In this document: piece by piece, positions 9,389 through 64,000 of the stretch
Position numbering within the stretch: position 1 is the stretch's first letter
Layout: every line of letters begins with the position of its first letter
NCBI GenBank assembly: GCA_030704845.1
Contig: JAUYKZ010000023.1
Coordinates: 14,262 to 78,261 of the forward strand
Direction: 5' to 3'
Length of the DNA stretch: 64,000 nucleotides
From: an archaeon
GTDB taxonomy: Archaea; Nanobdellota; Nanobdellia; Woesearchaeales; GW2011-AR9
Program-made: the position numbers and the translations under genes
The notes under the pieces: generated by a model
Database searches by the model: none
What the model saw: the letters and a program-made list of their open reading frames with translations, nothing else
Told to the model about the DNA's origin: nothing

Positions 9389-9934
9389 TTAAAGTTTCTT
9401 TAACAATTTTCCTAAAATTTTGAAATCTTGTTCCATTTCCTGCTTTATAGTAGGAAACCTCATCGCTGCAGAAGGGTGATAAGTTACAAAATATTTTTTA
9501 GAAATAGTTTTTCCATGTATCTCGGTTATTTTACCTTTACCTATCATGGAAAATAATGCGCTTTTTCCAAGAAGAATAATTAATTTAGGTTTGATTACTT
9601 CAATTTGCTTATCTAACCATAATTCTCGGCATGTTTTTAATTCTTTATTTGATGGGTTTCTATTTTTTGGCGGATGACATTTGACAGCTCCGGTGATGAA
9701 AGTATCTTTTCTAGAAATCCCAGCTAGGTTTATCATTTCATCCAGAACTGTTCCAGATTTTCCAAAAAAAGGAAGACCTTGCCGATCTTCTTCAACTCCC
9801 GGAGCTTCACCGATTAACATTATTTTAGAAGTATTCATTCCTTCACCGGGAACAGTTAAAGTTCTTCCTTTCCATAATGGGCAGGAAGTACATTTCCTGA
9901 TACCTTCCGCTAATGAGAAAATTGTTTGAGTCAT
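9389..9934 (-). CDS. udg: uracil-DNA glycosylase, family 4
   Basis: GEAPGVEEDRQGLPFFGKSG motif and an N-terminal CTSCPLW Fe-S cysteine cluster. Confidence 0.75.
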   Translation of the reverse strand: MTQTIFSLAEGIRKCTSCPLWKGRTLTVPGEGMNTSKIMLIGEAPGVEEDRQGLPFFGKSGTVLDEMINLAGISRKDTFITGAVKCHPPKNRNPSNKELKTCRELWLDKQIEVIKPKLIILLGKSALFSMIGKGKITEIHGKTISKKYFVTYHPSAAMRFPTIKQEMEQDFKILGKLLKKL

Positions 9935-28750: not shown

Positions 28751-28847
28751 ATATACTGAACGAAAAGTATTTTTGTGAACTTTTCGTTGGTATATACAAA
28801 CGCTAAATGAATTAAGTTCCAAATTTCATTTAGCGTTGAGTATATAT
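28751..28847. repeat. Copy B (reverse complement) of the 97-bp repeat at 2217-2316
   Basis: atatactgaacgaaaagtatttttgtgaacttttcgttggtatatacaaacgctaaatgaattaagttccaaatttcatttagcgttgagtatatat. This is an exact reverse complement of copy A as far as I can read. Confidence 0.8.
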
Positions 28848-41462: not shown

Positions 41463-41534
41463 TAGGATGCCAAAAATGTCTTCCTAAATGGTTGTATTTT
41501 AAACACAGCGACATTTTTGTGCATAAAAAAGAGT

Positions 41535-41668
41535 GTCGGGGAAGGGATTCGAACCCTCGAACCCACTAAGAGACAGGATATCTTCCAAGGAAGCCAATTA
41601 TCAATAATTGGTGCCTCATCCATGTGGACTTAAGTCCTGCGCATTTGACCGGACTTTGCTACCCCGAC
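41535..41668 (-). tRNA. tRNA-Leu (UAA) with intron of about 49 nt at position 37/38
   Basis: Minus strand reads gtcggggtagcaaag...gcaggacttaag[intron tccacatggatgaggcaccaattattgataattggcttccttggaagat]atcctg-long variable arm-gagggttcgaatcccttccccgac. The acceptor and T arm are canonical. After intron removal the anticodon stem is cagga/tcctg with loop cTTAAga. The intron carries its own ccaattat/ataattgg hairpin. Confidence 0.55.
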
Positions 41669-51266: not shown

Positions 51267-51413
51267 AACTATTCGGCGCTGTCCAGAAAGTCATAAAAAT
51301 GTATACTGGGGCACGGCGCTCATTACGAGCTTCACTTCGTTTGCTCGTGCGCCTCGACTACGTCAGGGCGCCAGTATACAAAAAAGAGACTTTCTGGACA
51401 GCGCCAACTATTC
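51267..51413. mobile_element. second MITE-like element: 18-bp perfect TIRs, 8-bp flanking direct repeats, GC-rich core
   Basis: The flanks both read aactattc (51267-51274 and 51406-51413). The TIRs are ggcgctgtccagaaagtc (51275-51292) and gactttctggacagcgcc (51388-51405). The interior is GC-rich with nested stems. Confidence 0.5.
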
Positions 51414-57338: not shown

Positions 57339-57980
57339 ATGGATGATTATATTGAAATTTTTATCGATTCTCAGGATTTAATAACAAGTAGTCCTAACAT
57401 TCCATTTCAAAATAAATTGGATGAATTGATCCAGCGTATCGAGAAAGAAAATGCTTGTTCTATTCCAGCCTTAGGGTTAGAAGAAAACCTTCAAGGTTCG
57501 GTAACACTGGGAGTTAATGCTTGGATGCACCAATCTGTATTTGATGGAATGAGAACAGAATTGGAAGATACTTACGGTAATGTTCAAGTTAAAATAGCTA
57601 ACGTTCTTTTTGAGGTTAGATCTCGTGATTATGGTTTAACTAGAGATTTGGTTGGAAAGTTAAGAAAACGTAATATTGTAGTTGAAGGTTACTGGCTTAT
57701 TGATCTTAATAAAGCTAGATTTATTGACTGTTTATCAGATAGAACTTATAAAGATATTAAACAGATGGCTAATGAAAAAGAAAGATTCTGGTATCTTAGT
57801 TGTAGAGCTGAAAAGAGTTCATATTTTGAAGATTTGTTTGAAACTGAACTTGTTCCTTACAAGAATGGCGATGTGTTTTCTCCGCATGTGAATTTTGGTA
57901 TGATTAAAGGTTTTGTAATACCCGATGATCTTAAGAGGTATATTTCTGAAATTAATCTTTATAATGCCCATGGAATTTGA
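57339..57980 (+). CDS. hypothetical protein
   Basis: ORF only. Confidence 0.3.
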   Translation: MDDYIEIFIDSQDLITSSPNIPFQNKLDELIQRIEKENACSIPALGLEENLQGSVTLGVNAWMHQSVFDGMRTELEDTYGNVQVKIANVLFEVRSRDYGLTRDLVGKLRKRNIVVEGYWLIDLNKARFIDCLSDRTYKDIKQMANEKERFWYLSCRAEKSSYFEDLFETELVPYKNGDVFSPHVNFGMIKGFVIPDDLKRYISEINLYNAHGI

Positions 57981-58162
57981 GTTAAGAAAAAATTGAATGT
58001 CTTATTCTCCTAAAACTTCTAATACTTTTTTCTCTAGTCGTGTAAGTTTGACTTTTTCTAAATGGATGTTGGTACTATGATGTTCTGTTTCATTCGCCAG
58101 GTGTATTTTAAGTGGGCTAATATTGATAAACAAATAACTATTAAATTTAATCCCACGTTATA

Positions 58163-58203
58163 GGGGTGTCTACAAAAGCGAAAGATTTAAATATGTAGAC
58201 ACC
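58163..58203. repeat. hairpin ggggtgtctac-N21-gtagacacc, 12 nt upstream of the fic ATG
   Basis: Read directly. It has the same 9-bp stem as the hairpin starting at the fic stop codon (59107-59138). Confidence 0.5.
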
Positions 58204-58214
58204 TTTAAAATATT

Positions 58215-59108
58215 ATGTTTATAGAAATTAGAAAAAGAGGAAAGAGTAAAAAGTATTATCTTGTTCATTCATATAGAGAAAGTGGTAAAATCAAGAGAAT
58301 TTCTCGTTATCTTGGTTCTAATCTTAACGAGAATAAACTACTAGAATTAGAGAAAAGGGCAGAACAGCATATCTTGGAAGGAATAAAAGAAAGAAGTATT
58401 CTTGAGTTTGAGTTAACTAAAAAAGAGATTGAAGAGTATAAAAAGTATGAGACAGATATTGAAATAAAACATTTACAAACATTAAATTGGAAACGATTTA
58501 CTGAAACTTTTACTTATAACACAAATGCTATAGAGGGTTCAACTGTTGCCCTCTCTGAAGTTAAGGAATTGTTGAGTGGAGAAGAAGAACCTCAAGGTGC
58601 GGACGATATTGAAACTCTTAATGTAGCAAAAGCCGTTGAATATATTCAAAAATCTAAAGAAAAGATAACTTTGAATTTTATTAAGCATCTCCATTTAATT
58701 TGTTTTAAAGGAACTAAGGGGTTTGCGGGTAAGTTGAGAGAAGTAAATGTTGTAATTAGGGATAGTCAAGGAAATGTTGTTCATGAAGGAGCACCAATAA
58801 ATAAAGTAAGGAGTTTGGTTGAAGAGCTTTGTAATTGGTATATTAAACATAAAAATAAATATCCTCCGTTACTTCTTGCTGCCGTCATGCATAATCAGTT
58901 TGAGAAGATACATCCATTTCAAGATGGTAATGGAAGAGTCGGAAGATTATTATTAAATTATGTTTTGTTACAGCACAAATATCCTCCAATTAACGTTCGT
59001 TTACGAGATCGAATTAGGTATTACAAGTGTTTACAAGAATATGATCAAAAGAATGATATCAAGTCTACTTTGAAATTTTTGATTAGTGAATATAAAAAAC
59101 AGTTTTAG
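58215..59108 (+). CDS. fic: Fic/Doc family protein (putative AMPylase)
   Basis: HPFQDGNGRVGRLLLNYVL matches HPFx[DE]GNGRxxR. TAG stop. Confidence 0.75.
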   Translation: MFIEIRKRGKSKKYYLVHSYRESGKIKRISRYLGSNLNENKLLELEKRAEQHILEGIKERSILEFELTKKEIEEYKKYETDIEIKHLQTLNWKRFTETFTYNTNAIEGSTVALSEVKELLSGEEEPQGADDIETLNVAKAVEYIQKSKEKITLNFIKHLHLICFKGTKGFAGKLREVNVVIRDSQGNVVHEGAPINKVRSLVEELCNWYIKHKNKYPPLLLAAVMHNQFEKIHPFQDGNGRVGRLLLNYVLLQHKYPPINVRLRDRIRYYKCLQEYDQKNDIKSTLKFLISEYKKQF

Positions 59109-59138
59109 GTGTCTACGTTTGGATTATGTAGTCACCCT
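59107..59138. repeat. hairpin aggtgtctac-N12-gtagtcaccc followed by a T-run, starting at the fic stop codon
   Basis: Read directly. One mismatch relative to the upstream stem. Followed by cttttttagggg. Confidence 0.5.
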
Positions 59139-59278
59139 TTTTTAGGGGTGGGATTTCATAATAAGAAGGGTATGCCCCCGCCGTACAAAGGCGTCTTATT
59201 CTAAATCTCGATTAGAATGTGATGGTTGTAATTACAATTAAATTGTTGATGTATTTATATATTTCTATTCTGTCGAGG

Positions 59279-60355: not shown

Positions 60356-60754
60356 ATGTTAAAAAAAAAGAATATAAAGTATTTGAAACTATTAACTTCA
60401 GAAGATATATTGGATATAACTATTCTGATAGAAACCAATGAAATCAAGAGATTTGCTATCAACTACAGAGCAAATATTCATGATGGATGGCGTGAGATTT
60501 ATCGGGTAGATAACTATCACGGCTATCTACATGAGATGAAATTTTGGCGAAATCAAGAACAAATAATTATCAAAGATAAAAATGGTTGGTCTTCAAAAGA
60601 TATTTTCAATTATTATATCGATGAGGTTACGGAAAACTTTCAAAGATATAGGATATATTTTGATAGAGCATTAAGACAAAATAGAACAGAAAGAAAAAAA
60701 AATGATAAAAATGAAACACGAATTAGAGAAGAAGGAACTAAAAAGAAAGGCTGA
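60356..60754 (+). CDS. hypothetical protein (first gene of a small overlapping operon; possibly starts at 60313 via an A9 tract)
   Basis: An upstream 43-codon ORF beginning at 60313 is in another frame. It overlaps this ORF at a run of nine A residues (60358-60366). Confidence 0.3.
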   Translation: MLKKKNIKYLKLLTSEDILDITILIETNEIKRFAINYRANIHDGWREIYRVDNYHGYLHEMKFWRNQEQIIIKDKNGWSSKDIFNYYIDEVTENFQRYRIYFDRALRQNRTERKKNDKNETRIREEGTKKKG

Positions 60755-61148
60755 ATCAATTAAAGGATTAGTTGATGATATACTTAGTGAAAAAATTGAT
60801 GTGCCAGATAACGCGTTAATTATAGATTTTGATGCAACTCAAAATATCTTTACTAAAAAAAGGATAGAGTTATTAGATACTATTAATTCTTACCAGCCGG
60901 CTTCTGTTCAAGAATTATCAGATCTTGTTAAGAGGAAAAAACAAGCGGTTGATAGAGATTTGAAGATGTTAGAAGAGTTTGATGTGATCACACTTGAAAA
61001 ACGAGGTAAGTTTACTGTACCAACTGTAAAAAGAGAGATTATAATACTCAGCATCAAGAAACCAAAACCACAAACAGAAATCATAATCAGTGCTGAGGTC
61101 TATGTTGATAGTATTAATATTAACAAAATAATGGAGATACCACAATGA
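60702..61148 (+). CDS. winged helix-turn-helix protein (MarR/ArsR-like)
   Basis: SVQELSDLVKRKKQAVDRDLKMLEEFDVITLEKRGK wHTH-like segment. Overlaps its neighbours. Confidence 0.35.
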   Translation: MIKMKHELEKKELKRKAESIKGLVDDILSEKIDVPDNALIIDFDATQNIFTKKRIELLDTINSYQPASVQELSDLVKRKKQAVDRDLKMLEEFDVITLEKRGKFTVPTVKREIIILSIKKPKPQTEIIISAEVYVDSININKIMEIPQ

Positions 61149-61402
61149 CTATTAAAAGAAAAGTAAAACGTGTTGTCGATGGAGATACTTTTGAAGTATT
61201 TAAAGCCGTTAGAGACAGCCATTTTATTCGGTTAGCTGGTGTTAACGCCCCTGAGAAATATCAGAAAGGGGGAATAGAGGCAACAAATAAACTAAGGCGT
61301 TTAATTGAGGGTAAGACTGTTACTTTAGTCCCCACAGGGAGGAGTTATGGTAGGTTGGTAAGTGATGTAAAAAGCAGTGGGAAAAAAGTAAATAAACTAT
61401 AG
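61145..61402 (+). CDS. truncated staphylococcal-nuclease-like (SNase/OB-fold) protein
   Basis: VVDGDTFEV...IRLAGVNAPEK corresponds to the DGDT...RLxGxDxPE core of thermonuclease. At 85 aa it lacks the C-terminal catalytic Arg/Tyr region. ATGA start/stop overlap with the upstream gene. Confidence 0.4.
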   Translation: MTIKRKVKRVVDGDTFEVFKAVRDSHFIRLAGVNAPEKYQKGGIEATNKLRRLIEGKTVTLVPTGRSYGRLVSDVKSSGKKVNKL

Positions 61403-63135: not shown

Positions 63136-63298
63136 ATTACGGTGATCGATGATTGGTTTTAGTCAGTGTTGGTAGAGTGACAAAGAAATAGTGATTATGT
63201 ACAGTTTGTATCATATAATTCTAACTACAACTTAACCAGTTCACGGCCGATGATCTTCTTCGAGTACTTCGCAACCACGTTGAGCATGGTGCTGTACT

Positions 63299-63943
63299 TC
63301 ATGACGAAGAGTGGCGTGTCCTGCTCGTAACGACCGGGATGTTGAGAAAGCCACTCACGCAGGTACTTCGCGGCTCGGTAGCACGAGGTTCGAGGTACAT
63401 ACCCTGGCCATTACTGAACTCTCCGTACCACCCCGTGTCGTCGTCGAAGAGGTCGGAGAGCATCGAGCTGCCGCAGAGGTAGCGCCTCACCAGCACTTGG
63501 TTCAGGACGTTGGGTGCATCGCCACACACGCAATTGACCCCGCAGTGGCAGTCGGCAGGGCAGGACGCGCATGTTTCTCCGCCTCCGCACGCGCCATCGC
63601 CACAGCGGGGTCGCGGGATGCACGAATTGCCGACGCAGTCTTCGTTGGCGGCACACGTGTTAGGACAGCTTCCTCCGCAGCCGTCTGTCCCGCACTCCTT
63701 GTTAGCGCAGCTCCGGACGCAGCCTACACAGGTTCCGTTCAGGCAGCCATTGACACAGTCCTCGACAACGCGGACGTTCTGGCCACAGACATCGAATTCC
63801 CAGAGGTCACCCACGCCGCAGCGTCGACCCGCAATGTTCGGTGCGCAGTAGCCCGGTTGCCCTGGAGATCCGGTACAGGTGTGATCCTGATGACATTGGT
63901 AGTCCCATTCGCAGGGCGGAGTGCAGCGGCCACCCTGGCACAC
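63299..63943 (-). CDS. cysteine-rich repeat protein (CGDG/CxxC repeats), probably N-terminally incomplete at the window edge; GC-rich gene
   Basis: Repeated C-x-x-C-G-D-G-like units (RCGDGACGGGETCASC, CGTDGCGGSC). GC-rich codon usage unlike the rest of the window. The minus-strand frame is chosen over overlapping plus-strand ORFs because of the regular Cys spacing. Confidence 0.35.
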   Translation of the reverse strand: MCQGGRCTPPCEWDYQCHQDHTCTGSPGQPGYCAPNIAGRRCGVGDLWEFDVCGQNVRVVEDCVNGCLNGTCVGCVRSCANKECGTDGCGGSCPNTCAANEDCVGNSCIPRPRCGDGACGGGETCASCPADCHCGVNCVCGDAPNVLNQVLVRRYLCGSSMLSDLFDDDTGWYGEFSNGQGMYLEPRATEPRSTCVSGFLNIPVVTSRTRHSSS

Positions 63944-64000
63944 CCAACCTGGCCGGCATTCGTTATCGACGTTGCAGAGGGAGCACCAGTCGCCGAGTGG

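Follow-up and report, generated by a model that had tools for sequence, protein, structure and literature searches.

A Fic gene of DPANN archaea bounded by two conserved palindromes: a candidate self-regulating module

A Fic gene and the palindromes at its ends

The window analysed here is a 64-kb stretch of archaeal DNA, and at 58215–59108 on its plus strand lies a gene for a class II Fic protein of 297 aa (Pfam PF02661, E = 7e-20). The catalytic motif HPFQDGNGR (58911–58937, plus strand) follows the class II pattern HPFx[D/E]GN[G/K]R, and the inhibitory motif TNAIEG (aa 103–108; 58521–58538, plus strand) has the form (S/T)xxxE(G/N), N-terminal to the core and in the same chain. Both motifs are invariant, with T103, E107 and G108 unchanged among the relatives, and TNAIEG aligns to the inhibitory helix region of FICD. 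The Fic core spans approximately aa 92–296, and about 35 residues, which form two helices, are C-terminal of the core. An identical protein in the database is annotated as 'Fic family protein [archaeon]', and the close relatives all come from DPANN MAGs with Woesearchaeota or Nanoarchaeota labels, some of which are mislabelled. The family as a whole has several thousand members in metagenomes of DPANN archaea. The G+C content of the window is about 33%, and a tRNA gene with a long insert is found at 41534–41668.

The N terminus of the protein forms a separate β3-α module (aa 1–64; 58215–58406, plus strand), predicted with a pLDDT of 91 to consist of three antiparallel strands and a long helix. 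The module is strongly basic, and the linkers that join it are of low prediction confidence. Profile searches of the window's Fic returned no match to a helix-turn-helix (HTH) domain. An exhaustive profile search placed the N-terminal module in only 130 cluster representatives, almost always at the extreme N terminus. It is carried by Fic proteins and broken Fic fragments, by some few small proteins and, in a handful of unrelated fusions, by a membrane or surface protein, a protein with a PEP-utilizer domain and an aaRS-like core of class II.

Upstream of the gene, the palindrome IR-up has the layout GGTGTCTAC-N21-GTAGACACC. Its outer (5′) arm GGTGTCTAC (58165–58173, plus strand) is identical in 19 of 20 independent units, each unit being a Fic gene with its palindromes, and its inner (3′) arm GTAGACACC (58195–58203, plus strand) is invariant in all 20. 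The ATG (58215) follows the stem after 11 nt, which bears out the preliminary description of a 9-bp stem at this position. Between the arms, the 21-nt spacer AAAAGCGAAAGATTTAAATAT (58174–58194, plus strand) contains a BRE-like purine stretch, GCGAAAG (58178–58184, plus strand), followed by the TATA box TTTAAATA (58186–58193, plus strand), which begins 29 nt before the ATG. The TTTAWATA part of this spacer is 90–99% conserved across 18 units.

The position of the box matches the local pattern of gene starts. In the 100 nt upstream of 60 long ORFs in the window, TTTAWATA-like boxes (24 matches, with exact boxes counted as well) are about sixfold enriched 26–35 nt before the ATG relative to the remaining positions, a peak that is the signature of leaderless mRNAs in the window. 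Because no Shine–Dalgarno sequence is present between IR-up and the Fic ATG, we infer that the Fic mRNA is leaderless and starts near the ATG. The loop of IR-up very probably holds the core promoter of the Fic gene, of archaeal BRE/TATA type, since the conserved TTTAAATA lies at a distance typical of the window's leaderless genes. Relative to this start, the outer arm would occupy positions of about −50 to −42 and the inner arm, between TATA box and start, about −20 to −12. With the TATA box in the loop, the outer arm would thus lie upstream of the start and outside the Fic mRNA.

The second palindrome, IR-down, begins on the stop codon itself: the first G of its inner (5′) arm GGTGTCTAC (59108–59116, plus strand) is the last base of the TAG (59106–59108), an overlap of one base. 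An 11-nt spacer of unconserved sequence (59117–59127, plus strand; column identity 30–60% in 18 units) separates this arm from the outer (3′) arm GTAGTCACC (59128–59136, plus strand), which has one uncompensated mismatch at 59132. After a single C follows a run of six T (59138–59143, plus strand), unconserved in relatives, which is possibly an archaeal termination signal in this genome only. The hairpin at the TAG with one mismatch and a T-run, as first described from the sequence, is thus present as reported. Beyond the two palindromes, an outer 8-bp inverted repeat has its left half AATCCCAC at 58149–58156 and its right half GTGGGATT at 59148–59155, with a shuffle p of 0.03 in the window. 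A comparable repeat occurs in only 3 of 20 units and is not a general feature, and its membership in the Fic unit is uncertain.

Conservation and distribution of the palindromes

We compared 20 distinct units drawn from GTDB genomes, from contigs carrying selected homologues and from a metagenome scan for the palindrome. Their proteins are 60–90% identical to the window's Fic, and all of them have both palindromes. Across the four arms, only 6 mismatches occur in 720 nt, while both outer flanks and the downstream loop are at random level in the same comparison. The few deviations in the arms are unpaired or wobble and break the pairs in which they fall, and compensatory changes are absent from 17 downstream palindromes (0 of 9 pairs with double changes). 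The spacing between arms is less strict. The upstream spacer varies from 21 to 23 nt, and the downstream spacer, 11 nt in most units, measures 14 and 24 nt in two relatives with 60–62% protein identity. In most relatives the inner arm of IR-down overlaps or directly follows the stop codon, and in one subclade (L002, L164, L171 and L173) IR-down is found about 57–62 nt after it.

Judged from these alignments, the constraint on the arms is one of half-site sequence and inverted arrangement, with no fixed hairpin and no strict helical phase. Invariant half-sites with variable spacers and without covariation point to sequence-specific recognition by a protein at four sites (→ ← gene → ←), and we consider it probable that the arms are protein sites rather than RNA structure.

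The conserved block also has sharp limits. In 228 unit pairs, homology ends at a median of 1 bp to the left of the outer arm of IR-up and, at the 75th–90th percentile, at most 1 bp to the right of the outer arm of IR-down. The Fic gene together with both palindromes is a discrete, self-contained block conserved in many related archaea. The earlier suggestion of a cassette-like unit therefore holds as far as the discrete block and its ends at the outer arms are concerned; the analogy with attC sites and integrons that came with it does not.

Beyond the Fic sites, the exact 9-mer GGTGTCTAC is absent from the 64-kb window. By chance the paired pattern would be expected there 0.00 times, as it never appeared in 100 dinucleotide-preserving shuffles, and no extra palindrome copies were found in the flanks of the Fic gene at the related loci scanned. 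A metagenome scan for the N11 form of the palindrome gave 31 matches, 15 of which adjoin a full or contig-truncated Fic gene and four of which adjoin decayed 3′ remnants of one. Nine more, a number at chance level, come from contigs of 42% G+C or higher, and three are on low-G+C contigs without any trace of Fic. Viral sequences contributed a further 19 matches, which are high-GC phage operators without relation to the Fic palindrome and about as many as chance would give. Rfam yielded no match for the Fic region or the related loci. The palindrome is thus exclusive to this Fic gene or its decayed remnants, to which almost all low-GC metagenome matches belong.

These searches bear on two points of the preliminary description. 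It had proposed looking for the same hairpins around other accessory genes; none flank other genes in the window or in the related-locus flanks, and almost all low-GC metagenome matches adjoin Fic or one of its remnants. It had also held that a motif occurring only here and conserved with the gene in all relatives would refute the cassette reading and point to an ordinary promoter/terminator pair, and this is the distribution found. The downstream palindromes that remain intact beside decayed Fic remnants (L149, L158, L161 and L167) imply either that the decay is recent or that the palindrome does something that does not require the gene in cis.

A proposed autoregulatory circuit and competing explanations

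On balance, we favour by a small measure a self-regulating module in which four Fic-specific half-sites make up an operator at the promoter and a second site at the 3′ end. Among the possibilities raised in the preliminary description, a shared operator appears to fit the sequence best. The two palindromes would be two pairs of inverted 9–10-bp protein-binding sites on double-stranded DNA. The upstream pair would clamp the core promoter, with the outer arm 5′ of the BRE and the inner arm separating the TATA box from the start, such that a protein bound to IR-up would exclude TBP, TFB or RNA polymerase and repress the Fic gene. The binder would be a Fic dimer, contacting DNA through the basic N-terminal module of a three-stranded sheet and helix on a flexible linker, so that a potentially toxic AMPylase would be under negative autoregulation. 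The same protein would also bind the pair at the stop codon, which could serve either as a co-operator that closes a loop of about 0.94 kb for repression or as a roadblock shielding the gene against transcription into or out of its neighbourhood; which of these roles, co-operator or insulator, the 3′ site would have is a matter of conjecture.

A distant homologue from Micrarchaeota, with 24% identity, shares the N-terminal module and is accompanied by four copies of a different half-site, TTAGGTAGAT, in two inverted pairs with 16-nt spacers. There, GGTTAGGCAGAT-N16-ATCTACCTAACC encloses a TATA box 5 nt before the ATG, and a second copy is located nearby. The design thus seems to recur with the palindrome changed together with the protein, in what is a single data point from one distant homologue. 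For Fic itself as the protein that binds the half-sites, we put the chances at about even. The fusions of the N-terminal module to unrelated proteins would be atypical of an autoregulatory DNA-binding domain. The spacers of 11, 14, 21 and 24 nt likewise argue against the model as far as a rigid dimer is concerned, as such a dimer would be unable to bind all of them. The intact downstream palindromes beside Fic remnants also count against it.

The same half-sites could instead be recognized by a host transcription factor or nucleoid protein that silences or insulates the accessory Fic gene. The invariance of the arms down to 60% Fic identity also fits a conserved host factor, intact downstream palindromes remain beside Fic remnants, and the N-terminal module of Fic is only a putative DNA-binding module. 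A host regulator would, however, be expected to have further sites, and none occur in the 64 kb or in the related-locus flanks; the different palindrome that the distant homologue has of its own is also explained more simply if the binder is encoded alongside the gene. We regard a host factor as unlikely. Less likely again, and in our view highly improbable, are stem-loops acting in the RNA, with one hairpin at the 5′ end controlling translation or stability and another at the 3′ end, together with a U-run, bringing about termination or protecting the 3′ end. Both elements can be folded, IR-up well (−18.2 kcal/mol, z = −4.8), and the T6 run follows IR-down in the window. IR-down, however, folds poorly (z = −2.1), and its full stem is not used in the minimum-energy fold. 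The TATA box in the loop of IR-up would leave the 5′ arm outside the mRNA, single changes break stem pairs with no compensatory substitutions, and the arms do not vary in sequence, whereas RNA folding would be served by any complementary stem. The T-run, moreover, is missing in most relatives. Archaeal termination does not need hairpins. The shared terminator also mentioned in the preliminary description is accordingly a weak candidate, given an unconserved T-run and an archaeal organism. An intrinsic terminator with a GC-rich stem, a short loop and a conserved U-run was rejected, the loop being 11 nt long, IR-down not being called in a terminator scan and the T-run being unconserved. A structured RNA element was likewise rejected in view of the missing covariation, the lack of an Rfam match and the promoter in the loop.

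The remaining alternative concerns movement of the block rather than its expression. In our view, the block is a discrete module that has come to lie in different places over evolutionary time. The palindromes could be the ends of a gene-sized mobile unit, with Fic as passenger or selfish cargo, which would be moved by a recombinase or transposase in trans through IS200/IS605-PATE-like or REP-like hairpin recognition, or by way of recombination-prone cruciforms. Several observations are in line with this. Fic is essentially the sole gene common to more than 11 neighbourhoods, with one further ORF common to two loci, and homology breaks off about 1 bp beyond the outer arms. A pair of loci with 95% identity has 822 bp in common downstream, diverges 2 bp outside IR-up and realigns 3–4 kb beyond that point. 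The immediate upstream neighbour of the Fic gene in the window (213 aa) is an orphan for which no homologue was found, and decayed Fic copies exist. Many family members are on contigs of about 1.1–1.2 kb that end 11–157 bp outside the palindromes, an observation that is ambiguous as evidence of graph branching. In addition, an outer motif, GGGGGACTTAAGAG / CTCTTAAGTCCCCC, lies directly against either end, oriented as inversion or insertion in both directions would predict.

Other observations weigh against mobility. The unit contains no recombinase or transposase, and none is consistently nearby. No direct repeat beyond the shuffle expectation, as a target-site duplication would leave, was found in 20 units, and no conserved target is apparent, as the two bases to the left of IR-up are GG, TA, AA, TG, CG, CT or GA. 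Each locus or window has one copy. For each of two proteins, the 24 contigs examined that encode an identical copy have it at the same position in a single context, which makes the position fixed within populations, and IMG/VR viral contigs contain no close relative of this Fic. In the one genome pair open to comparison, the divergence of Fic (77%) equals that of the housekeeping gene Dus (78%); at that distance, synteny around Dus is itself kept only in part. As regards an empty site, the closest genome by Dus (87%) has only 4.4-kb contigs, which end before the Fic position, and the next relatives by Dus (77–78%) are not syntenic downstream of Dus. The sharp homology borders, finally, are equally expected from purifying selection on an operator–gene–operator block with neutral flanks that have been randomized.

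We therefore think a mobile unit with the palindromes as its ends improbable, and hold equally modest expectations that the palindromes contribute to relocation of the Fic unit. A more specific version, to which we give still less credence, would make the 0.97-kb block a selfish one-gene element in which the N-terminal module of Fic both silences the gene and marks the ends for cutting, inversion or recombination. Host enzymes would then process the cruciform or hairpin for excision, inversion or recombination. Such an element would account for the stop of homology at the outer arms and the exchange of neighbours at the palindrome edge, and, if real, it would represent a minimal mobile unit of a new type, one that lacks a dedicated recombinase.

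As modifiers of cellular proteins, Fic enzymes are potent, and their restraint is only partly understood. To our knowledge, the only well-studied self-repressing Fic protein is CccR, which is bacterial and has an HTH domain. If the autoregulatory model is correct, Fic self-repression would extend to archaea by way of a different, uncharacterized N-terminal module, and the combination of a promoter inside an operator with an operator-like 3′ cap would make for a compact, plug-and-play, self-insulated gene. Were the palindromes also to mediate relocation, the block would constitute a new minimal mobile unit. DPANN archaea have tiny genomes, in which genes with accessory or defence roles deserve particular attention, and the invariant 9-mer offers a readily testable candidate protein–DNA pair.

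Comparison with known systems

The protein resembles SoFic, its best-scoring defence model in PADLOC (E = 1e-33), in being a class II Fic encoded by one gene alone within a variable region. Against the NCBIfam SoFic equivalog it scores 56 bits, the cut-off being 550. SoFic is a single-gene anti-phage defence with a C-terminal winged-helix domain and without the N-terminal module described here. We know of no defence phenotype for the family of the window's Fic. Type II toxin–antitoxin systems share with the Fic unit a toxic or potentially toxic enzyme, an accessory region, a palindromic operator over the promoter and, as proposed here, autorepression. In contrast to these systems, the unit has no antitoxin gene: the class II helix would provide the inhibition, and the enzyme itself carries the presumed DNA-binding module as a fusion. 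The Fic unit has, moreover, an additional operator-like site at its 3′ end.

Hairpin palindromes at both ends, together with the absence of classical terminal inverted repeats and of target duplication, recall IS200/IS605 elements, PATEs and REP/RAYT systems. IS200/IS605, PATE and REP elements are multi-copy, need TnpA or RAYT and insert by a conserved 4–5-nt target; their hairpins, with short loops, are tolerant of compensatory change. The Fic unit contains neither TnpA (HUH) nor TnpB, Fic being its only gene, and is present in one copy per window or locus. We know of no IS200/IS605, PATE or REP element that carries the promoter of its cargo in a hairpin loop.

Archaeal integrons are real and have been reported in Nanoarchaeota (PMC9668308). 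The Fic unit is like an integron cassette in that a single accessory gene lies between imperfect palindromes, in the variable, accessory-gene-rich regions of DPANN genomes. In integrons, attC sites carry R″/R′ cores (RYYYAAC/GTTRRRY) and extrahelical bases, differ between cassettes and are confined to the 3′ end of the cassette, which is mostly without a promoter; the cassettes stand in arrays beside intI/attI. The palindromes at the Fic gene, which the preliminary description had called attC-like, lack the RYYYAAC/GTTRRRY cores, have the same arms at both ends and include a promoter in the upstream copy. They are part of no array, and no integrase is encoded among the neighbours of the Fic gene.

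The closest parallel is CccR of Yersinia pseudotuberculosis, a class II Fic toxin and autorepressor with a DNA-binding domain that forms a back-to-back dimer (PMC9755527). CccR represses itself by binding AGATAATCAT-N26-ATGATAATCT, which straddles the −35 and −10 boxes of its own promoter, and mutation of this palindrome leads to derepression (PMC9755527). Both proteins combine a class II inhibitory (S/T)xxxE(G/N) helix with an extra module, nucleic-acid-binding in CccR and putatively so here. Both genes have inverted half-sites of about 10 bp with a long spacer (N26 in CccR, N21 here) around their own promoter, and the outcome proposed for the archaeal Fic, a dimer with widely separated DNA-binding modules and negative autoregulation, is of the CccR type. 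The two systems differ in their parts. The DNA-binding module of CccR is a C-terminal HTH, whereas the window's Fic has no HTH and carries an unrelated N-terminal β3-α module; the CccR promoter is a bacterial −35/−10 promoter, whereas the Fic promoter here would be an archaeal BRE/TATA promoter that gives rise to a leaderless mRNA. CccR is without the second palindrome that the archaeal unit has at its stop codon, and binding has been demonstrated for CccR and is inferred for the window's Fic. The Fic element described here is not a strict member of the CccR family, but it probably works like CccR.

Genes and repeats in the window

The Fic unit, comprising the Fic gene (58215-59108) and its two flanking palindromes, IR-up at the promoter (58165-58203) and IR-down at the stop codon (59108-59136), lies directly downstream of a gene for a 213-aa protein (57339-57980), whose sole match in a search of 5.8 billion proteins was itself. 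On the other side, 1.2 kb 3′ of Fic, a group of small, mutually overlapping genes (60356-61402) encodes a DUF7718 protein of 132 aa, an HVO_A0114-type winged-helix protein of 148 aa with weak Csa3/CasR-like matches in PADLOC, and a short SNase-like ORF. This group looks like a toxin–antitoxin or defence module, which argues that the Fic unit sits in an accessory region.

Other repeats occur in the same stretch. A MITE-like palindromic repeat of ~110 bp (TGTCCGGA...GTATACTGGCGCC...GGCGCCGTGCCCCAGTATAC...TCCGGACA), common to different genomes, lies at 51272-51383 in the window and at 2096-2220 and 9793-9917 in the related locus L004, where one copy is 33 bp to the left of the Fic unit. The window also carries a perfect inverted repeat of 97 bp, with copies at 2217-2313 and 28751-28847 separated by 26 kb. 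A tRNA-like gene of 135 nt (41534-41668) is detected by Rfam and missed by ARAGORN, and presumably therefore contains an intron; the palindrome GTGGACTTAAGTCC is located inside its insert. At the end of the window (63240-64000), the G+C content jumps sharply from ~33% to ~60%. This segment has no Rfam match and bears a Cys-rich minus-strand ORF that extends past the window end; its origin lies either in foreign DNA or in a chimeric join of the assembly.

Sequences bordering the Fic unit

Many relatives have a motif that adjoins the Fic unit, either as GGGGGACTTAAGAG on the left-hand side of IR-up or in reverse complement, as CTCTTAAGTCCCCC, on the right-hand side of IR-down (L003 9934 and 11185; L005 3580 and 4914; L008 2982; L002 5556; L006 10925; L022 6927; L012 ~5120). 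Joined together, the two halves would form a perfect palindrome, GGGGGACTTAAGTCCCCC, and they are similar to the arms of the structured element described below. Both halves occur in L003 and L005, enclosing Fic and one additional small ORF, an arrangement that suggests either insertion into a palindromic site or inversion beside one. In the window, an 8-bp inverted repeat, AATCCCAC (58149-58156) and GTGGGATT (59148-59155), lies immediately outside IR-up and IR-down (shuffle p = 0.03); a comparable outer repeat is found in only 3 of 20 independent Fic units whose proteins are 60–90% identical to that of the window.

The 9-mer that forms the arms of IR-up and IR-down also clusters on high-GC phage contigs (L121, L131, L133, L136, L128 and L137), for example as GTAGACACC in three or four repeats, or as TTGACA-GGTGTCTACACC inside a sigma-70-like promoter. 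The clusters resemble unrelated phage operators.

Fic remnants and a structured intergenic element

Decayed Fic genes retain only their last 4–96 codons and an intact downstream palindrome (L149 8702-8834; L158 250-568; L161 1426-1540; L167 ~1700-1800). The L167 remnant consists of AAGCAGTTTTA, the palindrome and ~45 nt, with a 30-bp direct repeat, ATAT(T/C)CAACAGTATGGTAAGATAAGATAAA, on both sides. In one subclade (L002 5464-5524, L164, L171 and L173), an insert of ~57–62 bp, containing its own small hairpin (CTGAAAACTAA...TTAGTTTTCAG) and bounded on either side by a duplicated AGGTG, separates the Fic stop codon from the downstream palindrome.

A structured intergenic element of ~75 nt recurs in the relatives' loci (L005 ~669, 2050, 3443, 5028, 5668 and 6586; L008 3978 and 7269; L022 671, 2211 and 5901; L142 and L163, minus strand), with zero copies in the window. 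It runs from ATTnnnCTTAACGATGTTAAGT through a GC stem of 7 bp, capped by a TTTAY loop, and then CAAG and a third hairpin to GAGTT, and has no Rfam match. All 7 of 7 pairs in its middle stem show compensatory double changes. Copies are spaced at approximately one per 1 kb, and small accessory genes (AbrB/PIN, RHH/PIN, RelE-like and NUDIX) lie downstream of them. Cassette-specific inverted repeats adjoin a copy on its 3′ side and the following copy on its 5′ side. The element may be either a structured element of a new kind or a system of cassette arrays in DPANN accessory islands.
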